A stretch of 64,000 bases of DNA from IMG/VR virus record IMGVR_UViG_3300009084_000003, positions 325-64,324 of that record, one strand, 5' to 3'. Shown here in pieces: positions 9,189 through 59,536 of this stretch. Made by a program: the position numbers and the translations under genes. Each line of letters opens with the position of its first letter. The stretch's first letter is position 1. Source of the stretch: a virus. Below the pieces are notes generated by a model, which saw nothing but the letters and a program-made list of their open reading frames with translations, ran no database searches and was not told the origin of the DNA.

Positions 9189-9532
9189 TTCTCCTCCTTC
9201 TCGACCAGTATGGAACTCGAGTAGGCCGTTCGGTAAACAGCGTTGACCCGCTCGGTCCCCACATAGGTGACCACTGGCGGGATGAACTCCCTGGGCTGAT
9301 TGTGATTCTCGTCCCGCTCGTCACACCCAGCGCAACCCGACCTGTAACGCGCCAGAGTCCCATCCTCGTTCAGAGCATGGGTGTGGGTGTACCCGAAGGT
9401 GTCGATCTCGGGCTGGCTCAACTTCCACTGAAGGTAAGCCTCCTGCCCCTGCACCGTCGAAAGGTCAAACCCCGAGGTGCTCACAAACTCCACCCCCAAC
9501 CGCTCGCCGCTCATGGCAACCTCTCGACCCAC
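9185..9532 (-). CDS. hypothetical protein (FGYTHxH...CAGC paralog 2)
   Basis: shares an ~30-aa block with 8886..9188. Confidence 0.7.
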   Translation of the reverse strand: MGREVAMSGERLGVEFVSTSGFDLSTVQGQEAYLQWKLSQPEIDTFGYTHTHALNEDGTLARYRSGCAGCDERDENHNQPREFIPPVVTYVGTERVNAVYRTAYSSSILVEKEEK

Positions 9533-9870: not shown

Positions 9871-10040
9871 GGCTGCATCTCCTCAAGCCACGCGTACAGC
9901 GCCCCCTCGAAAGGAGAGCAAGGCTGAGGCTCGCAAGGGGGATCGTAGAGCGAGTACACCCTGCCCGGCTCACAATCTTCTCGTGCAGGTGCCCCCAATG
10001 CGAACATCAGGGTTCTCACCGCCGGCTCGTCCTCGGTCAT
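9867..10040 (-). CDS. 57-aa hypothetical protein (not in ORF track)
   Basis: MTEDEPAVRTLMF...; tight packing. Confidence 0.6.
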   Translation of the reverse strand: MTEDEPAVRTLMFALGAPAREDCEPGRVYSLYDPPCEPQPCSPFEGALYAWLEEMQP

Positions 10041-10042
10041 CT

Positions 10043-10219
10043 TCACTTGAGTGCCATCCTCTCCAAGGTCCGCTCGTACTGAGCGACCCCCACGGCCTCC
10101 TCGACACTTGCGATCGCCTTGCGGATCAAGATGCGATTCCCCAGGTCAAGCTGACCCAGCGCGTCGATCTTGTCAGCCAACGCCCGCAAATGCGTCGTTG
10201 AAACCACTCGCTCACTCAT
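10043..10219 (-). CDS. 58-aa hypothetical protein, first gene of the leftward unit (not in ORF track)
   Basis: MSERVVSTTHLRALADKIDAL...; SD GAGGAGG. Confidence 0.7.
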   Translation of the reverse strand: MSERVVSTTHLRALADKIDALGQLDLGNRILIRKAIASVEEAVGVAQYERTLERMALK

Positions 10220-10330
10220 CAAAGCCCTCCTCAGAGCTAGTAGGTACCCCCTAGAGAGACCTCTCCACAGAAAGGGGAGGGGGGAGGGGGGAGAGGTACC
10301 CCCCCGGATTCCTTACTCATTTCTCCCGGA

Positions 10331-10585
10331 TCGAACAAACGTTCGCTAGGGGTCAATCGAACAAACGTTCGAGACCGCCCTATCGAACAAACGTTCGACG
10401 AGAACAACTAAAGCCGATCGAACAAACGTTCGACTGACAGCGATCGAACGAGTGTTCGATGAGAACAACTAAGTCGATCGAACAGAGGTTCGACCAAAGC
10501 CTATCGAACAAACGTACTGCCGGCCGGAATCGAACAAACGTACGACTGCAACCTAGATGACCTAGGGAATCGAACAACCGTTCGA
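10331..10585. promoter_or_regulatory. tandem array of nine LexA/SOS boxes (TCGAAC-N4-GTTCGA)
   Basis: starts at 10331, 10357, 10383, 10418, 10444, 10478, 10504, 10530, 10570; six perfect, two with one mismatch, one degenerate. Confidence 0.85.
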
Positions 10586-10597
10586 CTGCAACCTTCA

Positions 10598-10623
10598 CCA
10601 TTCGGTAAACAGTGTTGACCGAA
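10598..10623. repeat. 26-bp palindromic direct repeat CCATTCGGTAAACAGTGTTGACCGAA, left copy
   Basis: identical to 12016-12041. Confidence 0.95.
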
Positions 10624-10862
10624 CGCCACGACGCAACGAAGCGCACCGACGACAATGGCGACACCAAGGGCACCGGAACTACGCGGACCGGGGCAACGAA
10701 CGAGCAAGGGCAACGAACGGGCAAGGGGAGAACCGAGCCGCAGGAGCGAGCCGACGAGCAACGAACAGACAATGGCGCGCCTAGGTGCACCGAAACTGCG
10801 CGGCACTCTGATAGCGTTCCGAACTGGTGGTCCGAACAGACGAGGCCCGCCGAGAGGATGAC

Positions 10863-12014
10863 ATGTCGAACCGATCAACACTGACGAGAAACGCAGTCCG
10901 TTTCTCTGAGCAGACAGACCACGAAGCGCGGGTGCTTGAGAGCGAAGAACTTGCCGAGTTGGAATACCGAGGGGTGAACACGCGGAGCTACTCGCTACGC
11001 ACGTCTAAGGCGTTCCGAACGAGCGAATGGGCCTACTTGACCGAACAGGATTTAGTGGACGCTACAGCCGACTACACGGCACGCCTTGAGGCTGTGAAGC
11101 GTGACGTCAAGGCGAAGCGACTGACAGGAGCTACGGCGAAGAGAGCACTCCGCAACGCAGAGCACGCGCTCACCGTTGCCGAGCGTCAGACACTCGACAG
11201 CGTGACCCGCGAGGACGACACTGACTTCGACCCGCTGATCGCTGATCTCATCATCGGCAAGTGTGCTACCGGGCAGTACGTGATGCCCAGTAGCGACGCC
11301 ATCCTGATCACGTCGAAAGACCCGATGGCAGTCACGAAGTGGTCCGCGGACCTTGAACACGCGGCGACGATGTTCCTTCATGCTCATGGCGTGCGCACTA
11401 CTGCCCGACCCGACGTGTTGCCACGGTACGCCACGCGACGTCGTGCGATGAGCGATGACGTCGCATTCAAGGGTACGGCTCGGTATGCCCTTCCCAAGCC
11501 ATGCCGAGTCGGCTCTCTGGGCAATGAGCCCGCGGAACTGGGCAACGTCGAAACGCACGTCACGGAGCTACTCGTCACGCCGCGTTTCGTGCTTGTTGAC
11601 GGTGTGCTGACACTGAACAACGGGCGCGTTCGTAAGGCGTGGCGCGGCCACCGTTCGATCCTCGTTCGACTGTCGTCAAGGCGAAGCGCGAGCGAGACGA
11701 CGCGCAAGGCGAGGCGCGCCCAGTCAGTCGCGACCGACAAGGTGGCGAAGCGTGGCCCGGCCCGCGATCCGTGGAACCTTTCGCCGCGGAGCATTCCCGC
11801 CCGACTCAAGGCGACGACGGGCGCTACCGAACTTGCCCTACGCCTTGAGTCGGTACTGCGCACGTCGACCTACGGCGCGACCCTCTCGCTGAGCGATGGG
11901 ACAACGGTGGCACTCACCGACGTTTCGTTGAGTACAGCCCAGTATCGGGACGTCGCCTATCCGGTCCGCGAACTGTCACGCCGCGCCGCGCTCGCCGGGC
12001 TCACTGTCGAGTAG
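10863..12014 (+). CDS. orphan basic protein (383 aa), function unknown
   Basis: SD GAGAGG before ATG 10863; long ORF; no family recognised. Confidence 0.8.
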   Translation: MSNRSTLTRNAVRFSEQTDHEARVLESEELAELEYRGVNTRSYSLRTSKAFRTSEWAYLTEQDLVDATADYTARLEAVKRDVKAKRLTGATAKRALRNAEHALTVAERQTLDSVTREDDTDFDPLIADLIIGKCATGQYVMPSSDAILITSKDPMAVTKWSADLEHAATMFLHAHGVRTTARPDVLPRYATRRRAMSDDVAFKGTARYALPKPCRVGSLGNEPAELGNVETHVTELLVTPRFVLVDGVLTLNNGRVRKAWRGHRSILVRLSSRRSASETTRKARRAQSVATDKVAKRGPARDPWNLSPRSIPARLKATTGATELALRLESVLRTSTYGATLSLSDGTTVALTDVSLSTAQYRDVAYPVRELSRRAALAGLTVE

Positions 12015-12015
12015 G

Positions 12016-12041
12016 CCATTCGGTAAACAGTGTTGACCGAA
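12016..12041. repeat. 26-bp palindromic direct repeat, right copy
   Basis: identical to 10598-10623. Confidence 0.95.
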
Positions 12042-12080
12042 TAGGGGACCGTTCGCAATCGCGGGCGGTCCCCTATTCGG
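12037..12080 (+). terminator. 15-bp perfect hairpin after the orphan gene
   Basis: CCGAATAGGGGACCG / CGGTCCCCTATTCGG. Confidence 0.7.
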
Positions 12081-12447
12081 GGCCGCGATGGCAGGCGCGT
12101 GCCATTCCCTCTAGTCCCGACCATCCGATGTGTTACACCTTCCACTGTTCCTTCTACTGGTTTGCAGGGGGGGTTTGGCGGTTGCCGACCCTCCTGTCCC
12201 GTCCAGGCCGGTAAACAGGCCGTTTGCGGGCTCTAGAGAGGGGGTTGGGGTGCATGGGTGGGTGCCGGGTTGGCTCTTGCGTGGGTGGGGGCCATGATGT
12301 AAGATGTGTTACACCGTCGGTTCCGTTGTGGACCGCACTAGGGAAGAGGGTTGGAATGGACAGGTTCTGGGTGGGTTGGGCGATAGGTCTGGTCGGTGGT
12401 TTGGCTGGGGTTTTGGCTGGGGTTTACTTCGCTTGGTGGTGGAAGTG

Positions 12448-22714: not shown

Positions 22715-23137
22715 GGGGTTGAAGGATACGAAGACTGTCGCCTTTGCGGGGCGATGGTCCTCACCCCCGTCGCTCACAGCACTGGGTATTTGTGCATGAA
22801 ATGCTTCAACGACGGGCTGGGTGAGGTGCGGTTCCTTGAGGTGATGCACCGCGGGTCGCGAGTGATGTTGCCAACCGGCGGACGCAAGCGGAAACGTCGC
22901 AAGAAGAACTCAGCAACCCAACGTCAAGCCGAGCACGCCCAGCGGTCTGCGTGGCGGCGTCTGGCGGCGATTCATCCCGAGTTGTACGAGATGCTGTACG
23001 ACGAGGAGCGCCACCTGCGTGGGCTCAACCCGGTCATTCGCCGCAACCGTCAGGACCGCGCCGTTGTCGCATCGGAGACTTTGGACTTCGAGAGCGTCTA
23101 CGATGCCTTGCGATCGTCAGGAGAATCAGATGCGTGA
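22700..23137 (+). CDS. hypothetical protein with CxxC pairs and a basic patch
   Basis: CRLC...CMKC, RKRKRRKK; precedes portal. Confidence 0.7.
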   Translation: MNDLHGVEGYEDCRLCGAMVLTPVAHSTGYLCMKCFNDGLGEVRFLEVMHRGSRVMLPTGGRKRKRRKKNSATQRQAEHAQRSAWRRLAAIHPELYEMLYDEERHLRGLNPVIRRNRQDRAVVASETLDFESVYDALRSSGESDA

Positions 23138-56500: not shown

Positions 56501-56935
56501 ATGAGCGAGACAGTCACCTTCGATGAGCTGATGGGCCGCGAGTTGTTCGTTGAGCTGGTCGCGGGCGGGGTTGCGCCGATCAACGCTGGCATCCAGGTGG
56601 GGTGGACGCCACGTCAGTTGAAGCGAGAGCTGGCCGACCGTGATTTCAGGGAGCTGGTCGACGCCGCGTCTGAGCGCCTGATCGGGTCGGTGGAGGAGAC
56701 GCTGGTCGCCGTTGCGAAGCGGGGGAATGTCGCCGCCATCACCCTGTTCCTCTTCAACCGCGCCCCCGACCGCTGGCGCGACGTGAAGCGCATCGAGATA
56801 AAGAACGACCTCACCATCAGTCTCGGCATGGTCGCCTCCGTGAAACAGGGGGCGCTGGAGCTACTGCGCGAGCAGGGCGTTGGGGCTATCCAGGCCCTAG
56901 AGCCGCCGATCATCGACGCGGAGGTCGTGGAGTGA
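56501..56935 (+). CDS. terminase small subunit (putative)
   Basis: HTH-like N-terminus, GNVAAITLFL; directly before TerL. Confidence 0.7.
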   Translation: MSETVTFDELMGRELFVELVAGGVAPINAGIQVGWTPRQLKRELADRDFRELVDAASERLIGSVEETLVAVAKRGNVAAITLFLFNRAPDRWRDVKRIEIKNDLTISLGMVASVKQGALELLREQGVGAIQALEPPIIDAEVVE

Positions 56936-58485
56936 CGCCCGAACAGGAGCACCTTCAACGCATCGCCCTACCCTCGAAGGTCGGCCAGCACATCGGCCAA
57001 GAGGTCTTCGGTGAGCCGTACATCATGTTCCCGTTCGTCGCTCACGCCGAGCAACGCATCGTCGACGCGATCATGGACACCGAACACGAACGCTACGTGA
57101 TCGTGAACGCCCCACCGCAGGTCGGCAAGTCGACCTACTGCGGCATCCTGCTGCCATTCTGGGTCACCGGCATGTTCCCACAGTGGCAGGTCATGTACAT
57201 CTCGTACTCCGACGACTTCTCGACCGCTCGCGGCAAAGACGTTCGCACCCTCCACAACTTGTACGGCAATGAGTTGTTCGGTTCGCGCATTGACCCTGAC
57301 TTCACGATGGCAACCGACTGGCGGGTGTCGGGCGGGCGAGGCGGGATGCTGTCGGTCGGTGTCGGTGGTCTTATCACTGGCCGACCGGGCCACGTCATCA
57401 TCATCGACGACCTCATCAAGAATGCCCAGGAGGCAGCGTCCGCAGCGACGAAGAGGGCGCACTTGGCGGAGTGGGATGGAACAATCAACCGCCGCATCCA
57501 GCCGGGCGGCACCGTCATCATTATTGCTACCCGCTGGGCAGAGGATGATCTGTCGGGCGCGCTGATTGAGCGCATGAAAGAGCCGGGCTACTCCGGCCCA
57601 CAGTGGGAGATCATTGAGTTCCCTGCGTTCGCTGAACCCGCCGACGACGTCGAGCTGACCGACGAAGAGTTGGAGCAGTGGCGTGACGTCATTGGCCGCG
57701 AGAACGGCGAAGTGCTCGACTGTCGGTTCTCTCGCATCCCCTCGCGTCCTCCCGAAGACTTCTTCACTCTCGTGCGCGCAGGCATGGACGGATTCGCCTG
57801 GTCGTGTCTTTACCAGCAGAAACCCTCCGCTCGTGAGGGCGGCATGTTCCCTGTCGTCAATTGGCAGTTCTACGAACACGCCGAGCTGCCGCAGATGGAC
57901 AAGCAGGTTCGCATCTGGGACTTGGCCGCGACCGAGGGGGGTGGTGACTGGACGGTCGGCACGCTGATGGGCAGGGCGGGTGACAAGTTCTACGTGCTCG
58001 ACGTCCAGCGGTTCCGCAAGAGTGCTGGCGGGGTGCAGGATGAGGTGAAGCGCGTCGCAGCGAGGGACGGCTTCAACATCAAGATCAAGTTCGAGGAAGA
58101 GAAGGGCGGCTCGGGCAAATCAGTCACCGAGGCGTACCGCCGCCTGCTCGTTGGTCACACCGTCGAACCCTCGAAGGCTGAAGGCGACAAGGAATCCCGC
58201 TGCACCCCGTACTCGTCGGAGCAGAACAAGAGGCGAGTGTTCCTTCCTCGCCCTGGCACTGCCGATTGGGATGTCAAGGTGTTCATCGAGGAGCACCGCA
58301 AGATGATGGGTGACGGTCGCCGCCCCAAGCACGACGACCAGATCGACACCGCCGCCTACTGCGTGTTGGAGCTGCTCGGCGCTGGCACTGTCGAGATGTG
58401 GTCCCCGACGTCAGGGTCGAACTGGATGACCGCTCAGCAGCAGATGGACCGACTAATAGAGGAGCGCTTCCCGTGGGAGGGGTAG
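56932..58485 (+). CDS. terminase large subunit
   Basis: NAPPQVGKST, IIIDDLIK, IATRWAEDDL, WDLAA, HDDQID. Confidence 0.95.
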   Translation: MTPEQEHLQRIALPSKVGQHIGQEVFGEPYIMFPFVAHAEQRIVDAIMDTEHERYVIVNAPPQVGKSTYCGILLPFWVTGMFPQWQVMYISYSDDFSTARGKDVRTLHNLYGNELFGSRIDPDFTMATDWRVSGGRGGMLSVGVGGLITGRPGHVIIIDDLIKNAQEAASAATKRAHLAEWDGTINRRIQPGGTVIIIATRWAEDDLSGALIERMKEPGYSGPQWEIIEFPAFAEPADDVELTDEELEQWRDVIGRENGEVLDCRFSRIPSRPPEDFFTLVRAGMDGFAWSCLYQQKPSAREGGMFPVVNWQFYEHAELPQMDKQVRIWDLAATEGGGDWTVGTLMGRAGDKFYVLDVQRFRKSAGGVQDEVKRVAARDGFNIKIKFEEEKGGSGKSVTEAYRRLLVGHTVEPSKAEGDKESRCTPYSSEQNKRRVFLPRPGTADWDVKVFIEEHRKMMGDGRRPKHDDQIDTAAYCVLELLGAGTVEMWSPTSGSNWMTAQQQMDRLIEERFPWEG

Positions 58486-58923: not shown

Positions 58924-59111
58924 CACCACCTCATCGCTTCCATCTCTTCGTACAGGTTGTCGAAGACCTCCGGCATGAAGCGAGCAAGGTGTCCAATGCT
59001 CGGCTGGTTCTCGGCCCCCAACACCACGCCGATCATGATGCCAATGTCCTTGTCTTTCCGCCCCCAGTCGCGCAGCCTCGACACCGCAGGGAGACGCTCG
59101 TCCTCGGTCAT
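58923..59111 (-). CDS. hypothetical protein (MTEDERL...)
   Basis: ATGA overlap with 59108..59296. Confidence 0.6.
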   Translation of the reverse strand: MTEDERLPAVSRLRDWGRKDKDIGIMIGVVLGAENQPSIGHLARFMPEVFDNLYEEMEAMRW

Positions 59112-59296
59112 GTGCGCCACCGCTCGAACCGGCGCATCGTTGAATGCTTCTGCGCTCGCTCGATCCTGTCGCCCAAGGCATTCAGATGGAGAACCCAGCA
59201 GCCGTACGCCAGCTTGCGCAGGGCGGTTTCGTACCAGACGGGATGGAAGATGTCGAACAACAGGCGTTCCTCGGCGGCATGGCTGAGGCCCTCCAC
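59108..59296 (-). CDS. hypothetical protein
   Basis: abuts the lexA-like gene. Confidence 0.55.
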   Translation of the reverse strand: MEGLSHAAEERLLFDIFHPVWYETALRKLAYGCWVLHLNALGDRIERAQKHSTMRRFERWRT

Positions 59297-59536
59297 TTAG
59301 ACCGCCTCCGTCAGCGCCGCCATCCCAGCGGCGGTGATCGTGATGGCGCGGGGTGCGTCGGGGTACATGGTGATGAGGCCCTTCGCCTGCAACAGCTTCA
59401 AGTTCGCGTTGGTGCTTGCCGGGGACGCCAGCCCGCAACCTTTGGCGATCTCACGCTGTGATGGAACGAAGCCGCGGGTGTCGACTGATTCTTTGATGAT
59501 GCGAATGATGTCCCGTTCGCGCTGCGTGATGGTCAT
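59297..59536 (-). CDS. LexA-like winged-HTH DNA-binding domain only (no peptidase)
   Basis: TQRERDIIRII...RGFVPSQREIAKGCGLAS...LQAKGLI...PRAI; 79 aa. Confidence 0.85.
   Translation of the reverse strand: MTITQRERDIIRIIKESVDTRGFVPSQREIAKGCGLASPASTNANLKLLQAKGLITMYPDAPRAITITAAGMAALTEAV

Follow-up and report, generated by a model that had tools for sequence, protein, structure and literature searches.

Host LexA governs a few temperate elements, among them GIL01, CTXphi and coliphage 186. The closest of these to the locus considered here are the Bacillus tectiviruses GIL01 and Bam35, which have neither a dedicated CI repressor nor an integrase, and which carry boxes for host LexA in sets of two or more at phage promoters (PMC4551915, PMC6182141). 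In GIL01, two to four boxes overlap mapped promoters, and the phage has a LexA co-repressor (gp7) and a plasmid-prophage state. Its gp6 is a LexA homologue that lacks all but the DNA-binding domain; it binds a palindrome unlike the SOS box and activates a late promoter (PMC6182141). Here, we analyzed a 64,000-nucleotide stretch of virus DNA from a freshwater metagenome (the window; positions 325 to 64,324 of the IMG/VR record IMGVR_UViG_3300009084_000003), in which nine LexA-type palindromes (SOS boxes) are arrayed at the point where two gene arms diverge. The virus record as a whole is 67,272 bp long and 100% complete by CheckV estimate.

The phage resembles GIL01 in having no recognised CI repressor or integrase, in carrying a set of LexA boxes, which may likewise belong to promoters, and in encoding a LexA homologue that consists of the DNA-binding domain only, here a protein of 79 amino acids. 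It differs in being a 67-kb tailed actinophage, not a tectivirus, and in having eight to nine boxes with no mapped promoter. Neither gp7 nor a plasmid-prophage state was recognised in general protein scans, which included no comparison with a gp7 sequence. Phage control by host LexA is therefore of a kind already known from GIL01, and what would be notable is the number of operators, the integrase-less tailed actinophage family and the protease-less LexA domain. No described case of host-LexA control of integrase-less tailed actinophages was found in the literature searched.

The motif TCGAAC(N4)GTTCGA is the LexA consensus of Mycobacterium tuberculosis, defined by mutagenesis and chromatin immunoprecipitation; in its 4.4 Mb, that genome has just 24 sites with one mismatch or none, and no locus has more than three boxes (PMC3381160). 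One site has three boxes, and two peaks lie between lexA and Rv2719c (PMC3381160, PMC8607333). The recA and dnaE2 operators start with aTCGAAC and are bound by LexA at 1-4 nM (PMC8607333). The boxes of the window have the 16-bp palindrome of this SOS regulon (lexA, recA, dnaE2), where a leading A is frequent, and they share that A with the measured recA and dnaE2 operators. Host loci have one to three boxes overlapping promoters, whereas eight to nine lie here within 255 bp, with a conserved asymmetric centre (A..C).

Colicin operators consist of two overlapping SOS boxes of the enterobacterial motif (CTGT-N8-ACAG), which gives tighter cooperative repression. Such boxes share an end base, like the overlapping boxes that follow each other at 15-bp steps in four relatives of the phage (L093, L094, L095 and G012; see below), whereas the boxes of the window are at least 10 nt apart. 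Similarly, lytic phages of Alphaproteobacteria reportedly carry sites for, and a copy of, the host master regulator CtrA, an arrangement termed 'lytic deferment'. In that case the regulator, the motif and the host phylum are different, and the sites are dispersed at promoters, not arrayed.

Boxes, their statistics and their conservation

Six of the nine sites are perfect TCGAAC-N4-GTTCGA palindromes (starting at 10357, 10383, 10418, 10444, 10478 and 10570) and two have one mismatch (10331 and 10530). The remaining box, at 10504, has an intact left half and three mismatches in the right half; its counterpart in L091, a 94%-identical relative, has only one mismatch, and the box is therefore regarded as a decaying copy. 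A recount of the starts reproduced the spacings given in the initial annotation of this DNA, made from the sequence alone (26, 26, 35, 26, 34, 26, 26 and 40 bp for nine sites, six of them perfect). The identification of the motif as the mycobacterial/actinobacterial LexA consensus, made at the same time, agrees with the published one (PMC3381160, PMC8607333), and the array does lie, as described there, between two divergent transcription units (Table 1).

Dinucleotide-preserving shuffling of the window, repeated 100 times, never gave as many sites as observed. Given the base composition, 64 kb should contain about 0.10 sites with no more than one mismatch and 255 bp should contain 0.0004, against eight observed in 255 bp. 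No perfect site was found outside the array in the whole 67,272-bp record, and no open reading frame crosses the array in any frame. Between boxes, identity is 91% over the 12 core positions but only 34% over the five 10-nt spacers, which argues that the boxes are under selection and are more than recent copies. The centre of the boxes is asymmetric: spacer position 1 is A in 21 of 24 boxes, and spacer position 4 is C, not T, in 18 of 24.

For comparison, we used metagenomic contigs that were found through homologues of the 383-amino acid orphan encoded by the first rightward gene and that cover the same intergenic region (L091 to L095), as well as the more distant G012. Seven boxes are present in L091 and L092 (orphan identity 94%), three in L093 (64%), four to five in L094 (51%) and two to three in L095 (41%). 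In G012, which has the same two-arm layout and a large terminase subunit that is 50% identical, four to five overlapping boxes follow a G-run. The 12 conserved positions of the box are kept at the same place in all six, with differing spacers and flanks. The relatives also share the order of elements, that is, G-run, C-run and GGATTCC, then boxes, CGAAC-rich repeats, one to three copies of AAACTGCGCGG, and TGATAGCGT about 45 nt before the start codon. Outside the control region, no box with at most one mismatch was found in about 73 kb of the relatives' sequence; one extra perfect box is present in L094 and in L095, in the loop of the terminator 3' of the orphan gene.

The number and phase of the boxes are more labile. 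The copy of the 60/61-bp unit that holds boxes 4 and 5 (Table 1) is absent from L091 and L092, and steps of 15 (overlapping), 23, 26 and 30 bp occur among the relatives. With motif and position kept and copy number and phase variable, nine boxes at 26 bp are best described as a lineage-specific expansion; judging from the contigs compared, the ancestral state of the family is two to four boxes, and this lineage rose to seven to nine. Two points of the initial annotation were thus not upheld: nine boxes are not a defining feature, the relatives having two to seven at the same place, and the 26-bp period (2.5 turns), whose phase is not kept, gives no indication of an ordered nucleoprotein structure.

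Next to its boxes, G012 has a block (L185:15598-15900) made up of the G-run, the four to five overlapping SOS boxes, five DnaA-box-like sites and a long GTCGAC/GTCGTC tandem repeat, followed by the first rightward gene.

Table 1. Features of the control region and the gene of the LexA-domain protein (window coordinates).
Feature	Position	Strand	Description
First leftward-arm gene	10043..10219	-	58-amino acid orphan; no Pfam or PHROG match
G-run, C-run, GGATTCC element	10274..10312	none	G4-A-G6-A-G6-AGAGG, then TACCCCCCC, then GGATTCC; kept in L091-L095
Nine LexA-type palindromes (SOS boxes)	10331..10585	none	Consensus aTCGAAC-A-N-N-C-GTTCGAc; 16 bp; one orientation
Higher-order unit of 60/61 bp, two copies	10407..10519	none	Spacer (GAGAACAACTAA..) plus two boxes; from repeat family analysis, spacing 60-61 bp
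CGAAC half-site tract	10620..10837	+	Six same-orientation copies, partly CAACGAACG repeats; 6 observed vs 0.56 expected; 0 in opposite orientation
TGATAGCGT, extended -10-like element after AAACTGCGCGG	10809..10817	+	Candidate rightward promoter, about 45 nt 5' of ATG at 10863
First rightward-arm gene	10863..12014	+	383-amino acid orphan; homologues in relatives at 94-34% identity
LexA DNA-binding-domain protein	59297..59536	-	79 amino acids; winged helix-turn-helix and conserved C-terminal tail; PF01726, 63 bits; no S24 protease domain

A putative LexA operator set

The host is very probably an actinobacterium, in agreement with the initial annotation: the phage has a WhiB gene that scores above the Pfam cut-off, as Corynebacterium alone does among the control genomes, and 29 of 30 capsid matches are to phages of actinobacteria (named Gordonia, Arthrobacter, Microbacterium or Actinomycetia phages). 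Gene content was derived from a codon-usage gene call and family scans. No S24 protease (PF00717) and no tyrosine or serine integrase (PF00589, PF07508) was detected in the complete record, nor was a recognisable CI found there, which fits the earlier proposal of a phage without a cleavable repressor of its own; a novel repressor among the many orphan genes is conceivable.

The leftward arm contains orphans, a glutamine amidotransferase, an amidoligase, a weak lambda O-like protein, Erf, SSB, RusA and a DNA methyltransferase; it passes through the record ends and is continuous by synteny in one relative. The rightward arm contains the 383-amino acid orphan, a DnaB-like helicase, portal, capsid, glycosyltransferases, tape measure, lysis genes and, last, the terminase. 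The two arms diverge from a 640-bp non-coding region (10220-10862), inside which the array lies.

Because of the consensus match, the very probably actinobacterial host, the position, the lack of an integrase and repressor, and the presence of a LexA domain, the array is best read as an SOS-linked control element. Specifically, we tentatively favor, at somewhat short of an even chance, an expanded set of LexA operators that would couple early transcription, and perhaps origin firing, to the SOS response. This operator reading draws on what the motif is, on its place where the arms diverge, on how well it is conserved and on the example of GIL01; that LexA binds, that it represses and in which direction it acts are inferences. 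The most likely binder would be the LexA of the actinobacterial host, since the boxes equal its consensus.

As long as the cell is undamaged, about 250 bp would be covered by LexA dimers, which would keep leftward early transcription, and possibly the firing of an origin, in check. During an SOS response, RecA-stimulated self-cleavage of LexA would lift the block; alternatively, release could come from the dilution of LexA over many replicating phage genomes. Of the two arms, the left one has early, recombination and replication functions and the right one early, helicase, structural and lysis functions. Tandem duplication of the 26-bp and 60-bp units would have raised the number of boxes to seven to nine, giving a tighter, more switch-like occupancy. 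The 79-amino acid protein would probably act as a modulator, either as an uncleavable competitor at the boxes or as a gp6-like regulator of another site.

If LexA binds, an apparently lytic family of freshwater actinophages would tie its start-up to host DNA damage, caused for example by sunlight. This would be a way of deferring lysis without classical lysogeny, with consequences for the counting of 'virulent' phages in aquatic ecology. A natural series of two to nine operators, in which operator number can be related to switch behavior, is available in the family, as is, in host LexA and the phage LexA domain, a natural pairing of a cleavable with an uncleavable protein.

Several observations weigh against this operator reading. 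No promoter overlapping the boxes was found, and the one promoter-like element that is conserved is 227 bp away from the last box, on its right; promoter occlusion by the boxes is therefore presumptive. Of the SOS-gated switch first proposed for this locus, LexA-type operators in the master control region remain likely. The boxes have a single orientation and an asymmetric centre, neither of which a symmetric LexA dimer needs, and the six same-orientation CGAAC half-sites 3' of the array would be a better match for a DNA-binding domain that acts as a monomer than for dimeric LexA. Clusters of DnaA boxes adjoin the boxes of G012 and of the unrelated record L055, which is an origin context. The consensus is that of M. 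tuberculosis and may not be that of the host. General scans of proteins found no plasmid-maintenance genes that would permit a GIL01-like carrier state. Finally, a phage that is apparently lytic would have no evident reason to accept a block by a host repressor.

The phage LexA-domain protein and other readings

The initial annotation had referred to a LexA-like protein of the phage, and such a protein is indeed present, as a protease-less LexA domain. Its gene is the third-last in the leftward arm, and the protein aligns to residues 4-68 of E. coli LexA. The homologues are 65-91% identical, occur in the same synteny in each relative for which that region is available, and have an invariant recognition helix (SPASTN). 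These features make the protein a candidate second binder of the boxes.

A reading in which the boxes are the operators of this protein, with host LexA irrelevant or incidental, is unlikely but is the strongest of the competitors. Made from close to the end of the leftward arm, the product would return to shut off or re-programme early transcription, giving SOS-independent timing or an autoregulatory loop; at the SOS boxes of the host, it might in addition stand in for LexA as an uncleavable mimic. The protein is a genuine LexA winged helix domain, its helix and the boxes are both invariant in the close family, and a monomeric domain fits the half-site tract and the asymmetry of the boxes. However, the recognition helix reads SPNTGHALV in the G012 homologue, compared with SPASTNANL in the phage, and the G012 boxes are unchanged. 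The RKG motif is required for LexA DNA binding (PMC8607333); this position reads AKG in the 79-amino acid protein, where the motif is thus lost, and varies across the family. The precedent itself, gp6 of GIL01, binds a palindrome unlike the host SOS box, and a phage-specific protein would have no need of sites identical to the host consensus at all 12 positions.

Other phages that encode LexA-domain proteins also speak against this assignment. The mycobacteriophage Wildcat, which has the nearest isolate homologue (41% identity), shows no enrichment in SOS boxes (6 matches vs 7 in the reversed control), and three phages that encode other LexA-domain proteins, their genomes complete or nearly so, have no boxes. 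In the wider family of proteins of about 80 amino acids, the helices are highly variable. A palindrome other than the box that changes together with the recognition helix was sought in G012, with no usable outcome. Because the helix differs in G012 while the boxes stay the same, host LexA is mildly favored: as primary binder, we consider it about twice as probable as the phage protein, on sequence comparisons, and both may bind.

The helix pattern of the phage is encoded by no species-representative genome, which also leans towards host LexA. A scan of genome contigs with the LexA-domain alignment matched, through a pattern outside the recognition helix, only distant LexA proteins and short LexA-like proteins (in Chloroflexota, the Geobacter group (Geobacteraceae, Trichlorobacter), Verrucomicrobiota and an unclassified bacterial metagenome-assembled genome), and so offered no clue to the host. 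Similarly, a 'LexA_DNA_bind' match in G004 was rejected as LexA, being a weak 27-bit winged helix.

That the region is or contains a replication origin, with the boxes as origin-gating or iteron-like sites for a phage initiator or for LexA, is improbable on the present evidence. In G012, the array directly adjoins the five DnaA-box-like sites and the GTCGAC tandem repeat, and in L055 a block of eight boxes, six to seven DnaA boxes and two more boxes is found. Another phage group repeats the box sequence seven times inside a DUF1376 replisome-organiser-like gene, and a replisome-organiser gene is a classic place for an in-gene origin. The region is also the largest non-coding stretch beside the replication/recombination arm and has a strand-asymmetric, T-free tract. 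Yet the window has no cluster of DnaA boxes, with one weak match only, and no AT-rich unwinding element: the lowest GC content in 60-nt windows is 45% and is due to the boxes themselves. The palindromes stand at irregular distances of 26, 34-35 and 40 bp and are not helically phased direct repeats, and their spacing varies among the relatives. The only initiator-like gene, the weak lambda O match, is about 11 kb off, and the adjoining 383-amino acid orphan has no assignable fold. The initial annotation had named iterons of a phage initiator as the alternative to LexA sites; the window thus offers none of the phased direct repeats, AT-rich element or DnaA cluster that this would entail, but the DnaA clusters beside boxes in G012 and L055 do point in that direction.

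A more elaborate form of LexA control, a self-titrating gate that would work as a copy-number-driven, all-or-none switch and would also turn on the host SOS response, strikes us as rather improbable too. Host LexA would silence incoming genomes, and damage or leaky replication would raise the ratio of boxes to LexA. With eight to nine sites per genome, LexA would then be stripped from the phage and from the host regulon, and the uncleavable phage LexA domain would re-occupy the boxes and close the early phase. If true, this would give a lytic freshwater phage a lysogeny-free way to wait in undamaged cells.

The array could also be mainly a decoy, with local control being secondary: the eight to nine sites per copy would soak up host LexA upon replication and de-repress the SOS response. 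We consider this very unlikely. The number of boxes did increase from two to four to seven to nine in this lineage, a mycobacterial genome has about 24 comparable sites, which a few dozen phage genomes would outnumber, and no overlapping promoter was found. The model for such a sponge is the E. coli datA locus, a chromosomal cluster of DnaA sites that acts in a copy-number-dependent manner, for which titration was demonstrated experimentally; no sign of titration is seen here. Relatives with two to four boxes at a fixed position beside conserved leader and promoter elements have the pattern of operators, and a decoy could sit anywhere, yet boxes are found only at the control region. Moreover, the phage has its own Erf, SSB and RusA, so that its need for the host SOS response is unclear, and its uncleavable LexA domain would counter de-repression if it bound the same boxes. 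The LexA sponge of the initial annotation therefore found no specific support, the ancestral two to four boxes resembling ordinary operators.

Finally, each box can be folded as a 6-bp stem with a 4-nt loop and copy number shifts between close relatives, but a role as RNA (nine 6-bp hairpins in a leader) or a neutral tandem expansion is hardly credible, since the stems never co-vary (in the deviating half-sites GTACGA, GTTCGC, GTACTG and ACGAAC pairing is lost with no compensating change), no Rfam family matches in 9900-12400, and relatives with flanking proteins of only 41-50% identity still have these 12 bases unchanged, against 34% identity in the spacers.

Box arrays in other phages and further elements of the region

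A motif survey of IMG/VR found genuine non-coding arrays in four records (L055, L065, L006 and L038), two of which carry WhiB. The array of L055 has ten boxes and is unrelated to that of the window, which is therefore not unique. Neither L055 (87% complete) nor L038 (four boxes, 99% complete) has any gene with a LexA domain, a further point in favor of host LexA as the binder. An exact 17-mer search of IMG/VR gave single, unclustered matches only.

In L055, one non-coding block (359-770) contains eight SOS boxes, six to seven DnaA boxes (TTTCCACAG, TTGTCCACA) and two more perfect boxes. From its arrangement, the block looks like an SOS-gated, DnaA-dependent phage origin, and box arrays beside DnaA boxes in other phages hint that such origins exist.

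In five other records (L050, L059, L064, L068 and L082), arrays with a 21-bp period were rejected as operator arrays because they are coding heptad repeats (EQVFEKx). For example, positions 6192-6355 of L068 hold seven perfect or near-perfect SOS-box sequences at this period, which encode the heptads EQVFEKx/EQLFxxx, and the same is seen in the other four. The gene concerned encodes a 390-amino acid DUF1376 replisome-organiser-like protein, and the repeats may be an in-gene origin that doubles as a set of LexA sites.

Within the control region of the window, the distance from the GGATTCC element to the first box is exactly 18 nt in three lineages, which suggests that the start region of the leftward transcript adjoins the array. 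In G012, a G8TTGGG run adjoins the boxes. The element at 10274-10312 could form a G-quadruplex or, in the leader of the leftward transcript, a 5' hairpin. A consensus scan of 9900-11100 gave no canonical sigma-70 match, and the leftward promoter was not found. Among listed RNA sequencing runs, none contains this sequence. The TGATAGCGT element is the sole promoter-like element kept across the relatives, and it is found at the same place in L093, L094 and L095.

To the right of the array, the plus strand is nearly free of T over about 120 nt (10640-10760), with an AT skew of 0.8-1.0 and CAACGAACG repeats. L093 and L094 have (GAAC)n-like runs at the position that matches the CGAAC tract. For the 383-amino acid orphan, the AlphaFold model has a mean predicted local distance difference test (pLDDT) score of 56; the fold search returned helical-hairpin matches only, and an Atlas search gave no usable match. 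Searches of a phage isolate collection by DNA similarity and with the orphan protein gave no match, Pfam and PHROG scans of 20 neighboring proteins gave almost none, and no tRNA gene was detected in the window.

The rightward arm finishes with the large terminase gene (the stretches concerned are 56932-58485 and 59108-59536), which runs towards the leftward arm's end and is far from the portal gene at 23019; the ends of the record are therefore probably arbitrary.

Three further repeats or conserved stretches were observed. The palindrome GGTAAACAGTGTTGACC occurs at 9232, 10604 and 12022, where it brackets the gene of the 383-amino acid orphan; it has four copies in L091 and is absent from L093-L095. 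A non-coding stretch of about 290 bp that follows the same gene (12060-12310) is conserved in L091-L094; within it are a strong terminator hairpin (GGGGACCG...CGGTCCCC) and GATGTGTTACAC, which occurs twice. In addition, the 13-bp palindrome GAC[AG]TA[GC]TATGTC is found at 1205, 18966, 22683, 29717, 37999, 48354, 49529 and 55883. It includes a -10 hexamer, ends 3-5 nt 5' of ATG codons and resembles a promoter for leaderless genes. The same palindrome was not seen in 27 kb of G012 and is present in L087, L090, L093, L095 and G011.

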